A stretch of DNA of 33,367 nt, taken from an uncultured Bacteroidia bacterium. Lineage in GTDB: Bacteria > Bacteroidota > Bacteroidia > J057 > CALLMJ01. The position numbers and the translations under genes are program-made. The stretch's first letter is position 1, and the number at the start of each line of letters is the position of its first letter. This document shows positions 5,611 to 8,870 of the stretch, piece after piece. The notes under the pieces are model-generated. The model was given only the letters and a program-made list of their open reading frames with translations. It was not told where the DNA came from and ran no database searches. The stretch covers positions 1 to 33,367 of the forward strand of contig CALAJS010000217.1 in assembly GCA_937922825.1 (NCBI GenBank). Direction: 5' to 3'.

Positions 5611-5683
5611 ATTCCGTAGCTCAGTTGGTAGAGCATTTGCCTTTTAAGCAAAGGGTCATGGGTTCGAATCCCATCGGAATCAC
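5611..5683 (+). tRNA. tRNA-Lys (anticodon UUU).
   Basis: Cloverleaf GATTCCG...CGGAATC-A. Anticodon loop CTTTTAA. T-arm ATGGG-TTCGAAT-CCCAT. Confidence 0.85.
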
Positions 5684-5698
5684 TAGGTTAGAATAAAG

Positions 5699-5770
5699 AT
5701 TCCGTAGCTCAGTTGGTAGAGCATTTGCCTTTTAAGCAAAGGGTCATGGGTTCGAATCCCATCGGAATCA
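5699..5770 (+). tRNA. tRNA-Lys (anticodon UUU), tandem duplicate. The T-stem is 1 nt shorter than in copy 1.
   Basis: Identical to copy 1 except that gaatcccatcgg reads gaatccatcgg, shortening the 3' T-stem. Confidence 0.75.
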
Positions 5771-5774
5771 CAAA

Positions 5775-5858
5775 GCCCAGATGGTGGAATTGGTAGACAC
5801 GCTACTTTGAGGGGGTAGTGCTCGTTAGAGCATAGGAGTTCGAGTCTCCTTCTGGGCA
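5775..5858 (+). tRNA. tRNA-Leu (anticodon GAG, long variable arm).
   Basis: Acceptor stem GCCCAGA/TCTGGGC with discriminator A. D-loop GAATTGGTAGA resembles class II tRNA-Leu. Anticodon stem CTACT/GGTAG with loop TTGAGGG (G37). Long variable arm and T-arm AGGAG-TTCGAGT-CTCCT. Confidence 0.75.
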
Positions 5859-5917
5859 CTCCATAATATTTATTTCCTATGGAATATATCAATTTTGAGT
5901 CTTTATTAAAAAGATAG

Positions 5918-6672
5918 AAAGAAATTAAGTCTGATTATCAATCTAAAAAACCATTTCGTTATGTGATGTTTGAAAACTTTTTTATCCAGATAAAGCAGAG
6001 GAAATTTTGAGCAATTATCCAACGATAAAAGAGGGGATATGGGATGGTACAACGTATATTGATCAAAAAAATAAGTTTCAAAAGACTAAATTTGAAGAAG
6101 GTAGTGTAATGGATAAAGTTTTTAAGGAGTTAAATTCCCCACAATTTTTAAATTGGCTTTAAGAAGTTACAGAAATAGAAGTTAGTCTTATTGGTGACGA
6201 AGAGTTATTTGGTGGGGGGCTACATCAATCTATAGCTGGAGCTTTTCTTAATGTTCATGTAGATTATAATATTCATCCTAAAACTAAATATCATAGAAGA
6301 TTAAATGTTTTAGTTTATATGAATAAAGACTGGAAAGACGAATATGAAGGGCATTTAGAGTTATGGGATTTTACGGATAAAAATAATGGAAAATTACTTG
6401 ATAGATACGCACCTTTATTTAATCGTTGTGTAATTTTTGAGACAAATGAAATTTCCTATCATGGACATCCTAAACCACTAAAAACTCCTAAAGGAGTAAG
6501 TAGAAAATCTCTTGCGGCGTACTATTATACCAAAACAAGGAATGAAAATGAAATTGCCCCTGAACACAACACAATATATGTAAATACGGAAGGAATTTTT
6601 GGTCAAATTAAAAGATTTCAGTCAGGGGTAATTGCCTTTTTAGAAAGAATAAAAATTTTAAAAAGTAAATAG
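5918..6672 (+). pseudogene. 2OG-Fe(II) oxygenase (prolyl-hydroxylase-like) pseudogene with a frameshift and an in-frame stop.
   Basis: The N-terminus KKPFRYVMFENFF reads in frame 2. It then shifts to frame 1 around 5990 (ILSNYPTIKEGIWDG...). An in-frame TAA lies at 6160-6162 (FLNWL*EVTEIE). The HxD iron-binding motif LNVHVD lies upstream of the annotated ATG at 6319. The distal His segment NRCVIFETNEISYHGH is present. Confidence 0.65.
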
Positions 6673-6726
6673 TTGTCCCTAAAAAAGTCAATTTTAGGAT
6701 ATTTTTCATCAAGAGCCTATCAAAGT

Positions 6727-7322
6727 TTAAAAATCATCAAATTTGTACTTTTCTAATAAAAAGAACATTTCCTCTTGCTCAAAAGTATTTCTATATTCTT
6801 GAGTATCAAAACCTGCATCAGCATTCAAGAATAAGCCTTCTGTTGGTATATCAGCTTCCGCAAGCCAGTCCCCTGATTATCTGATAAACACAGAAAATTA
6901 GTGCATTCATCGGCTCTCCTTGCCTGAAAGCCCACCGCTTCCCCTCCCTGATGAGCCCTCGTCTGTATGCCATCTAATTGAACACAAGACAGGTCTAAGT
7001 TATTTTTGTACTTTTTCAATAAAGATACCCATAGCCTTTTCCAAGAACCATCACGCACCCAGCGACTAAAATGATAATGAACCGATTGATAGGTATAAGT
7101 ACCCCTCAATATATTGTTTTATCGGCAATTCTCGCCACTGACAGCTAGTTTTCAGCCGATAAAAGATACAGATACGATACCTATACGTTTCTCTTCACTG
7201 AGAGCTACTCCCTTTTTCCAAAAGAAAGATAGGGTAAAATATATTTTTTTATCTTATCTTTGCTCAAGATGCTCATCTTTGAATAGTTTTTTCCCCAAAC
7301 AAAAGTATTCTTTTTTGAGCAT
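6727..7322 (-). mobile_element. IS4/IS5-family (DDE_Tnp_1) transposase remnant with multiple frameshifts and an internal deletion.
   Basis: Minus-strand translations give RLKTSCQWRELP (conserved CQWRxLP), then YQSVHYHFSRWVRDGSW, LDGIQTRAHQGGEAVGFQ and FLCLSDNQG. A jump follows to the C-terminal NADAGFDTQEYRNTFEQEEMF, so the central catalytic part is missing. There are stops in all frames. Confidence 0.7.
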
Positions 7323-7628
7323 CTTTCTAAATGTTTGTCTTGCAATACGATAAATAATTTCGATAATCTTTGACAAGCTCGATATCAATAGTACTCGTTT
7401 TATTCACGGGTAATTAAGTTTATACTTTAGAGTAGAAATCTAATTCAATGTAGCTACTCAATTATCTTTTTGCAAGCTCAATGAGTAGTTTATCAGTTCC
7501 CTAATCTGGGGTTGCGTACCGAAATCCAAGAAATAACTAAAAACTCTGCGATAATAGTAAAATCAGCACCTCTTGGACATGAGTCTTGAAGTGCTGAAAA
7601 CTTTAAATTCCCTATTCAATTTTTATAA

Positions 7629-8870
7629 TTAATCCCGAGATTTCATATATATGTGTGCTTTGATAGCCTCTATTTCTTTATTTAATTGCTCTAATTTTCT
7701 TTTTAACTCTGCATTCTCCTGGATTAACTCCTCATTCTTTTTATCCAACTCCTGCACGGCTTTTACCAAAGGCATGATAAAATCTCCGTAACGCAAAGAA
7801 TACACTTCGTTAGCATTGCGGGGTTTCTCTAAGCCCGGAAAATCAAATCCGCAATGATTTGCCGCTTTTTCTACATCTTGGGCAAGAAAACCGATGAAAC
7901 GCTCTTGTTTTATTTGGCTATGGTCAATATTTTTGACGATACTATCGGGGGTGCCCCAGATTTGATGGAGTATTTCCGGGTTTTGATTATAAGTAACCGG
8001 CTTTAATTGTTTGATGAATGCCAGTCCTGGTACATTTTCCTGGATATTAAACTTATAACGTGCATCGGAATACGTAGTTATACTAGTTACTTGCGCCCGT
8101 ATTTGAGTAATAGCGGTATTCCCTAAAAGCACCTGATGATCGGCTGTACATTGCCCGTTAGCAATATTGGCGCCCAACATGGTTACATTGGTACGATTTA
8201 CCGTTGGATAACTATTGTATCCTACGAAAGTGCATTGATTAAAATCTACTCCCGTAGATCCATAACCTGCATACCTTCCTATTGCTGTATTATAGTTTCC
8301 GGTGGAATTGTAATAAAGTGCGCCTGAACCACTTGCTGTATTATAGCTTCCGGTGGTATTGGAAAAAAGTGCCTGGTAGCCCAAAGCAACATTGTCGTCT
8401 CCTGTCGTATTCGAATAAAGTGCTTGGTAACCAATACCTACTCCCCAATTGTTACTATGGTCATCGCTATTTCCTGCCTGGTAGCCTAAAAAAGTAGAAG
8501 CATCTCTCGTAATCCCTATTCGCCCTGCTTTTGCGTTATCAACTTTGAAGTTTAAGGGTGTGTTATCCGTTGTACCAATAAAATGTGTACCATCTACGGT
8601 GCCTGCATTACCCGTTAACGACCAACGATTGTTAAATGAGTTCCAATCTCCTGAACTTAATAACCCTGTTGCTGTTCCGCTTGCCGTAGCTATGTTGATG
8701 GTAGTTCCAATCCCTATTACCGCATTGGTTCCTCCTGTAATGGTAACCCCACTCGTAGTTGTACTTAAATTCCCCGTGCTTGATGCAACATACTTGGTGC
8801 CGTTATGCTTTAAAATTTTATTATTGCTTGAACCTGTAACGTCTATATCATTTGTATAATCCAAAATCAC
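7629..8870 (-). CDS. Phage tail-fibre-like protein with a C-terminal intramolecular chaperone (peptidase S74) domain.
   Basis: Repetitive Y(N/S)NTTGxxNTAxGxxALxxN units typical of tail fibres. Near the C-terminus TSITTYSDARYKFNIQENVPGLAFIKQLKPVTY matches the S-D-x-R-x-K autocleavage motif of endosialidase-type chaperone domains. A terminal coiled coil follows. Apparent GTG start with no signal peptide, so the N-terminus may be truncated. Confidence 0.65.
   Translation of the reverse strand: MILDYTNDIDVTGSSNNKILKHNGTKYVASSTGNLSTTTSGVTITGGTNAVIGIGTTINIATASGTATGLLSSGDWNSFNNRWSLTGNAGTVDGTHFIGTTDNTPLNFKVDNAKAGRIGITRDASTFLGYQAGNSDDHSNNWGVGIGYQALYSNTTGDDNVALGYQALFSNTTGSYNTASGSGALYYNSTGNYNTAIGRYAGYGSTGVDFNQCTFVGYNSYPTVNRTNVTMLGANIANGQCTADHQVLLGNTAITQIRAQVTSITTYSDARYKFNIQENVPGLAFIKQLKPVTYNQNPEILHQIWGTPDSIVKNIDHSQIKQERFIGFLAQDVEKAANHCGFDFPGLEKPRNANEVYSLRYGDFIMPLVKAVQELDKKNEELIQENAELKRKLEQLNKEIEAIKAHIYMKSRD

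Follow-up and report, generated by a model that had tools for sequence, protein, structure and literature searches.

Genomic islands and prophage remnants linked to tRNA genes are typified by an integrase and by attachment (att) direct repeats at the 3' end of the tRNA gene, and the genomes of recently host-restricted bacteria such as Mycobacterium leprae and Candidatus Amoebophilus asiaticus are typified by an abundance of pseudogenes and insertion sequences (ISs). Here we describe a patch of three damaged genes that lies directly 3' of a tRNA-Lys, tRNA-Lys, tRNA-Leu cluster on contig CALAJS010000217.1 of an uncultured Bacteroidia bacterium (positions 1 to 33,367, the whole stretch of DNA that was analysed, hereinafter the window). 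The patch comprises a pseudogene of a 2-oxoglutarate (2OG)-Fe(II) oxygenase, the fossil of an IS5-family element and a 5'-truncated open reading frame (ORF) for a secreted fibre with a Peptidase_S74 domain, a domain first described in the endosialidase of phage K1F. Taken together, the evidence presented below indicates that the patch is probably a small site of local gene decay within a chromosome that is otherwise compact, rather than a scar left by an integrative element that targeted the tRNA. The features in question, with the means by which each was recognized, are:

5610-5683, plus strand: tRNA-Lys (anticodon UUU), copy 1 (ARAGORN; Rfam RF00005, 79.5 bits).
5698-5771, plus strand: tRNA-Lys (anticodon UUU), copy 2, a tandem duplicate with an 88-nucleotide (nt) period (ARAGORN and Rfam).
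5775-5859, plus strand: tRNA-Leu (anticodon GAG), intact (ARAGORN and Rfam).
5879-6672, plus strand: 2OG-Fe(II) oxygenase pseudogene of the PF13640 family (Pfam, tblastn of the homolog P0002, nucleotide alignment).
6713-7380, minus strand: IS5-family insertion sequence fossil (tblastn of the transposase P0130, alignment to the copy on contig L104).
7381-7628, no strand: non-coding spacer from the IS fossil to the 3' end of the fibre ORF (no ORF, no Rfam match).
7629-8870, minus strand: 5'-truncated secreted-fibre ORF of 413 amino acids with a GTG start (Pfam PF13884, homologs, family alignment).
8871-9071, no strand: spacer at the site expected for the lost 5' end of the fibre gene, with a terminator-like hairpin at 8938-8960 after the DUF2279 gene.

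The conceptual product of the oxygenase pseudogene, whose ATG lies 19 nt from the 3' end of tRNA-Leu, matched PF13640 with 60 bits (cut-off 27, E 4e-16), and its three-frame translation contains the HxD...H ligand motif of the family in the form of an HVD and a distal HGH. An intact homolog of 260 amino acids (P0002) covers the pseudogene end to end in two frames in a tblastn search (E 8e-124), with 81% identity over 224 residues and 71% over a further 35. Nucleotide alignment to three intact genes revealed that the frame is interrupted three times, namely by two in-frame stops and one frameshift. The first lesion is a TAG at 5915-5917, where the intact genes have AAA or CAA, the next is a T-run (5978-5983) that is one T short, which shifts the frame, and the last is a TAA at 6160-6162, where the intact homologs have CAA or CAG, indicating a C-to-T change. 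Of this entire region gene callers report just a tail of 117 amino acids (6319-6672). TAA, TAG and TGA each terminate normal ORFs in the window, which points to the standard genetic code; this normal stop usage, along with the separate frameshift, rules out stop-codon reassignment as the cause of the in-frame stops. Moreover, the lesions are identical in four assemblies, i.e. the window, a second assembled contig (L082), which shows 7 differences from the window over 18,870 nt, and two Logan short-read assemblies (L135 and L136), each made from a separate run; within the pseudogene these differ solely by a silent-type change at 6540. Hence, the lesions are real, and with both Logan assemblies and the second contig carrying them an assembly or sequencing error is ruled out.

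Comparison with 118 intact homologs showed that the product has kept 53 of 53 invariant positions and 102 of the 104 positions conserved at the level of at least 95%. The kept fraction (0.981) is thus indistinguishable from that of the intact members themselves (mean 0.988, minimum 0.952), and, as judged from these retained residues, the inactivation of the gene is very recent. The family to which it belongs is cellular and widespread, with intact members of approximately 260 amino acids and at least 5000 matches at 70-80% identity across several orders of Bacteroidota; it gave no PHROG match, and a sequence search of the PDB with the oxygenase and with the fibre ORF returned no matches. Analysis of 75 immediate neighbours of family members in 43 genomes recovered glycosyltransferases of the GT4/GT1 type (17) and S-adenosylmethionine-dependent methyltransferases (10) as the commonest, with acyltransferase_3, DegT aminotransferase and asparagine synthase also being frequent, and the usual setting of the family is accordingly in glycan-biosynthesis loci. 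None of these five types of genes flanks the oxygenase in the window, and a distance of 19 nt from tRNA-Leu would leave it without space for a promoter of its own. These contextual observations suggest that it might be the stranded relic of a lost glycan locus. Separately, homologs 60-70% identical to the Bacteroidota family were found in a search of genome contigs on five contigs (L018, L032, L044, L063 and L071) whose metagenome-assembled genomes are labelled as Acidobacteriota, Pyrinomonadaceae, Pelagibacterales and Burkholderiales, which points to either mis-binning or the horizontal transfer of an unusually conserved gene.

The IS fossil retains 668 nt of an element of about 948 bp. In a tblastn search with P0130, an IS5 transposase of 270 amino acids that itself scores 120 bits on the NCBIfam IS5 model NF033580 (cut-off 110), it was recovered in three frames with a combined E of 1e-50 and 61-62% identity, and it also matches PF13340 (36 bits, cut-off 34.3). 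Residues 1-21 and 21-136 of P0130 are matched, the latter segment with local frame slips and two stops, as are residues 165-198; residues 137-164 and ~199-262 are deleted. The transposase start codon is at 7276. As a reference for the whole element we used a more closely related, near-complete 948-bp copy (L104:1748-2695) with perfect 16-bp terminal inverted repeats GAGCTTGTCAAAGATT. Relative to this copy, the left inverted repeat of the fossil at 7365-7380 (GAGCTTGTCAAAGATT on the minus strand) is perfect, and the right one at 6713-6728 is degenerate, with 13 of 16 positions matching in the correct orientation; a search of the window for the inverted repeat gave 3 matches where 0.37 are expected by chance. 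Between these ends the fossil has suffered six 1-nt indels (five deletions and one insertion) and two larger deletions, one of 82 nt with its junction at 6869/6870 (IS positions 516-597) and another of ~190 nt with its junction near 6767-6797 (IS ~700-889). The larger deletion takes out the region with the third catalytic residue (Glu) of the transposase, and on the strength of these lesions the element is predicted to be incapable of making a transposase, i.e. to be a dead copy.

The fossil is flanked by ...TCAA and GATA..., with degenerate ends and no clear target duplication visible. It lies 40 nt past the stop codon of the oxygenase and 248 nt past that of the fibre ORF, i.e. wholly within the spacer between two convergent genes, and neither gene was disrupted, as the C-terminus of the oxygenase and the stop codon of the fibre ORF are both intact beside it. 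The short-read contigs break within the fossil at 7154 and 7313, which suggests that other copies of the IS are present in the sample; within the 33 kb itself, neither a second copy nor a further pseudogene was seen. The reference copy on L104 comes from another metagenome (ERZ17914329), where it adjoins ftsW, and its transposase is split into ORFs of 167 and 148 amino acids at a run of seven T; this split could reflect either a mutation or programmed slippage.

The third element of the patch, the fibre ORF, is composed of NTAxG-type repeats, a Peptidase_S74 intramolecular-chaperone domain (PF13884, 32 bits, cut-off 22) and a C-terminal coiled coil. Sequence searches recovered 6351 homologous proteins of Bacteroidota annotated as 'tail fiber domain-containing', most of which are 550-720 amino acids long; the ORF aligns to residues 148-556 of one (P0267) and 190-618 of another (P0307), and is 66% identical to several members over its last 260 residues (E 1e-110). 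An alignment with 12 members of the family revealed 58 invariant columns that are shared with the fibre ORF. In 11 of these 12 there is, as assessed by eye, a signal-peptide-like N-terminus followed by an N-terminal domain, which in many family members is PF26696 (PTL_trimer), the twelfth being a protein of 409 amino acids (P0268) with neither. The window ORF has no signal peptide, N-terminal domain or ATG, and its GTG immediately follows a stop codon. In the 201 nt upstream, neither three-frame translation nor tblastn at E<=10 gave any trace of the family N-terminus. Given that the homologs are longer and that nothing recognizable lies upstream, the ORF is best described as 5'-truncated and not merely as an orphan. 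Its product is probably neither exported nor functional, as far as can be predicted from what is missing. One between-strain polymorphism was noted in the ORF, the non-synonymous change Gly306Ser, which is uninformative.

The fibre ORF matches tail spike and tail fibre families in PHROG (PHROG 4636 at E 2.6e-37). Its relatives in deposited phages are only 28-35% identical, and a profile scan of IMG/VR gave phage relatives at 24-35%, along with one genuine phage fibre in which a short segment reaches 56% identity at a weak E; a scan of IMG/VR with the single protein gave no match. With the closest relatives being cellular at 66% identity, and the phage proteins far more distant, a phage origin of the gene was rejected. 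The relatives are found among housekeeping genes (HSP90, pyruvate kinase, RecA and the alanyl-tRNA synthetase AlaRS): in one locus four tandem fibre paralogs, followed by a protein with a type IX secretion system (T9SS) tail, lie between HSP90 and pyruvate kinase, and in another a lone copy is flanked by a sensor kinase and AlaRS. In the window, the neighbours of the ORF are DUF2279, a lipocalin-like protein, an SpoU methylase and a T9SS protein. Within the ORF, a direct repeat with a period of 51 nt occurs in three copies (8282-8423) and encodes a 17-residue NTAxGxxAL..NTTG unit, whose copy number varies widely across the family.

Much of the initial annotation, which was made from the letters of the DNA, agrees with these results. 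It had placed three broken or orphan elements directly 3' of the tRNA-Lys, tRNA-Lys, tRNA-Leu cluster, and both the cluster (by ARAGORN and Rfam) and the three elements (by homolog alignments) lie at or near the positions that it gave, with support far beyond that expected by chance. The transposase with a central deletion and frameshifts was right in substance, the alignment now resolving 82- and ~190-nt deletions between two inverted repeats that are both kept, and the tail-fibre-like gene with a GTG start was correctly named at the domain level (PF13884 and PHROG), with the 5' truncation being an addition to that description. In the case of the oxygenase the reported frameshift stood, and the count of nonsense codons has to be raised from one to two.

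Analysis of gene neighborhoods in related organisms bears on the age of the tRNA cluster at this site. None of the 80 oxygenase loci recovered from genome contigs, all of which are at most 77% identical, has a flanking gene in common with the window, and no tRNA-Lys or tRNA-Leu was found near the homologs at the 60 loci scanned. A metagenome scan with the 212-amino-acid protein that flanks the cluster gave no match, and one with MiaA gave relatives at no more than 41% identity. In contrast to these, a HMMER scan of 1.8 billion representatives yielded two real relatives of the 212-amino-acid protein. These are genus- or family-level relatives (contigs L131-L134; runs SRR28863566, SRR28863568 and SRR28863572), with MiaA being 65% and 50% identical and the vault-like protein 87%, and their gene order is the same as in the window: the vault-like protein, a 111-amino-acid protein, MiaA, a 211-amino-acid protein and tRNA-Lys. 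This conservation of gene order up to tRNA-Lys in two relatives implies that the tRNA cluster is ancestral at the site. The proximity of MiaA to a fibre gene in another contig (L106) was also considered as a case of conserved synteny and ruled out, as that MiaA is only 37% identical. Within the cluster, the tandem duplication of tRNA-Lys(UUU) spans 5604-5771, with an 88-nt period and copies that are 98-100% identical. Short-read contigs from the source genome and from the two relatives all terminate within tRNA-Lys, and the relatives therefore probably also possess more than one copy.

The above observations can be accommodated by three unrelated events that would have been superimposed at the patch. 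The oxygenase, stranded without its glycan partners, would very recently have lost its function to a pair of nonsense substitutions and to the slip of a single base in a run of T. An IS5-family element of ~948 bp would have inserted between the convergent oxygenase and fibre genes, and would then have been inactivated where it stood by small indels and a pair of internal deletions, with its ends being kept. Finally, a deletion would have stripped a gene encoding a trimeric secreted surface fibre, whose C-terminal chaperone module is like that of phage tailspikes, of its promoter, start codon, signal peptide and N-terminal domain, leaving a remnant of 413 open codons that is probably non-functional. 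From these remains we infer the loss of the glycan neighbours, the order of the events and a common theme of relaxed selection on cell-surface functions.

An alternative that the location itself brings up, and which the initial annotation had favoured, is that the block 5860-9071 is what erosion has left of a genomic island or prophage. Such an element would have entered the chromosome site-specifically at the tRNA-Leu 3' end, and would since have shed its integrase, the distal att repeat and the bulk of its cargo. The position of the block directly 3' of the tRNA cluster, the IS remnant inside it, the true, if distant, homology of the fibre ORF to phage tail spikes and fibres, and the G+C content of that ORF, which is the highest in the window, all conform to such an origin. 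However, no recombinase was found between 5860 and 9071, and the only tyrosine recombinase of the window (17912-18811) lies 12 kb away with housekeeping genes in between; it is XerC/XerD-like, with 300 and 251 bits on TIGR02224 and TIGR02225, below the equivalog cut-off (300 vs 335). A direct repeat of the tRNA 3' end, which the initial annotation had proposed to look for downstream, was likewise absent from the 33 kb: the 29-nt 3' end of tRNA-Leu, with up to 3 mismatches allowed, matched only itself, a repeat finder detected no att repeat of this end, and blastn-short with the whole tRNA-Leu and tRNA-Lys gave 12 nt (E 0.11) as the best other match. No other phage or conjugation genes occur in the patch, with matches to viral families being limited to the fibre ORF, which is itself far nearer to cellular secreted fibres than to any phage protein, and the oxygenase comes from a conserved cellular family with no viral family match. 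In terms of G+C content, the oxygenase (0.292), the IS (0.364) and the fibre ORF (0.403) deviate in opposite directions from the ORFs of the window (0.333, standard deviation (SD) 0.027), and with three such differing values the pieces do not resemble a single foreign block; the value of the fibre ORF may also reflect its Gly/Ala/Thr-rich repeats. This explanation is thus without positive support beyond location, and we regard it as unlikely.

The patch might also be seen as a symptom of genome-wide reductive evolution, in which IS expansion is followed by pseudogenization and deletion, as in recently host-restricted bacteria, and the initial annotation had indeed spoken of ongoing genome reduction or IS-mediated decay. 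The presence of three damaged genes within 3.2 kb, the contig breaks in the IS at 7154 and 7313, with the further copies that they suggest, and a vestigial-looking CRISPR array beside an intact type III-A operon (see below) would be in keeping with this. Set against it is the compactness of the surroundings in the 33 kb of the genome that are in view: 5860-7628, with 1769 nt and no long ORF, is the largest non-coding gap of the window, the remaining gaps are shorter than 202 nt except for one spacer of 672 nt, coding is dense with intact ORFs, and neither a second IS copy nor another pseudogene was seen. Hence, of the earlier statement the local gene decay with an IS remnant stands and the ongoing genome reduction is not evident, as the genes are tightly packed outside the patch; such a genome-wide process seems to us a poor prospect as an explanation. 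Yet another proposal is that the fibre ORF, lacking a promoter and a start codon, serves as a silent donor cassette that recombines with expressed fibre paralogs to vary a surface fibre, with the dead IS and the pseudogene being incidental. Its 413 codons have stayed open at 33% G+C despite the missing ATG, signal peptide and N-terminal domain, other Bacteroidota possess tandem arrays of paralogs of this family, and the internal NTAxG repeats vary in number, as might be expected of such a cassette. On the other hand, no paralog or recombination site was seen in the window, and a recent deletion equally predicts an intact ORF at a place where the neighbouring pseudogene shows that there have been recent events. 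We therefore deem a silent cassette very improbable.

Certain observations weigh against the interpretation of the patch as local gene decay. The tRNA-adjacent site, the IS and a fibre G+C of 0.403 (+2.6 SD) are also what would be expected of the remnant of an old island. The former adjacency of glycan genes to the oxygenase rests solely on other genomes. The contigs of the two relatives (L131-L134) end inside tRNA-Lys, before the 3' side of tRNA-Leu, and the patch could consequently be lineage-specific DNA. Lastly, the fibre ORF is still open for 413 codons, which implies that the truncation is very recent or that the ORF has kept some use.

Thus, in conclusion, the adjacency of tRNA genes and the presence of broken genes are insufficient for calling an integrated element. 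The finding is real but ordinary, and its value lies mainly in corrected annotation, as it provides exact coordinates for three features that are misreported by gene callers: the pseudogene of which a 117-amino-acid tail is called, the unannotated IS5 fossil and the truncated fibre ORF. The fresh pseudogene of an oxygenase and the stranded remnant of a fibre gene hint at a lineage that is shedding glycan and fibre functions of the cell surface, which would be of interest for the ecology of this uncultured group only given data from the whole genome.

The wider setting of the patch is that of a member of the Bacteroidota: the window has a G+C content of 33%, its genes include Bacteroidota-type ones such as those with the T9SS Por_Secre_tail and CHU_C domains, and the best matches of its proteins are to Cytophagales, Chitinophagales and Flavobacteriales. 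On the minus strand at 18985-26820 it encodes a complete and intact type III-A (Csm) CRISPR-Cas effector operon consisting of cas6b, cas10/csm1, csm2, a csm3-like RAMP gene, csm4, a csm5-like RAMP gene and a gene for a Csm6-type HEPN protein; the window has no cas1 or cas2. In the region 17580-18811 (minus strand), the XerC/XerD-like gene adjoins the gene for a ribosome hibernation factor and the csm6 end of this operon. Just upstream of cas6b no regular CRISPR array was detected at 27019-27463; three to four degenerate repeats of ~37 nt occur there, with a spacing of 66 nt between two of them (minus-strand sequence GTTG..TGAAC.CCTATTAATTAGATGGTATATACAC), and these look like a decayed, vestigial array. 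Towards the other end of the window, a gene on the minus strand at 1008-3467 encodes a protein of 819 amino acids with matches to MVP_shoulder (97 bits), Vault_3 and Band_7/SPFH. It is a bacterial protein resembling the major vault protein, and is 87% identical and syntenic in the relative on contig L131.

When placed beside known systems, the patch resembles tRNA-linked genomic islands and prophage remnants in its location directly 3' of tRNA genes, its IS remnant and its damaged genes, and differs from them in that it lacks an integrase, a repeat of the tRNA end, further genes of phages or of conjugation and any evident uniformity of foreign composition, with the families represented being cellular. 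With the genomes of M. leprae and Ca. Amoebophilus asiaticus it shares the occurrence of fresh pseudogenes together with dead IS copies, whereas here the decay is seen within one patch of 3.2 kb, in a window of 33 kb. Like the 'tail fiber domain-containing' proteins of Bacteroidota, the fibre ORF possesses the repeat region, the S74 domain and the terminal coiled coil, but it is without their signal peptide and N-terminal domain and begins with a GTG after a stop codon. The IS fossil shows its kinship with the IS5 family (NF033580, transpos_IS5_3; DUF4096 with DDE_Tnp_1/DDE_Tnp_4 in Pfam) in the transposase remnant and the shared 16-bp inverted repeat, and departs from it in six 1-nt indels, two internal deletions and a degenerate right repeat. 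Finally, unlike other members of the PF13640 superfamily (prolyl-4-hydroxylase/Tpa1-like in JGI naming), the oxygenase has a frame broken three times and no glycosyltransferase or methyltransferase at its flanks, and at the same time it still carries all the invariant residues and the HxD...H iron-binding motif of its relatives.

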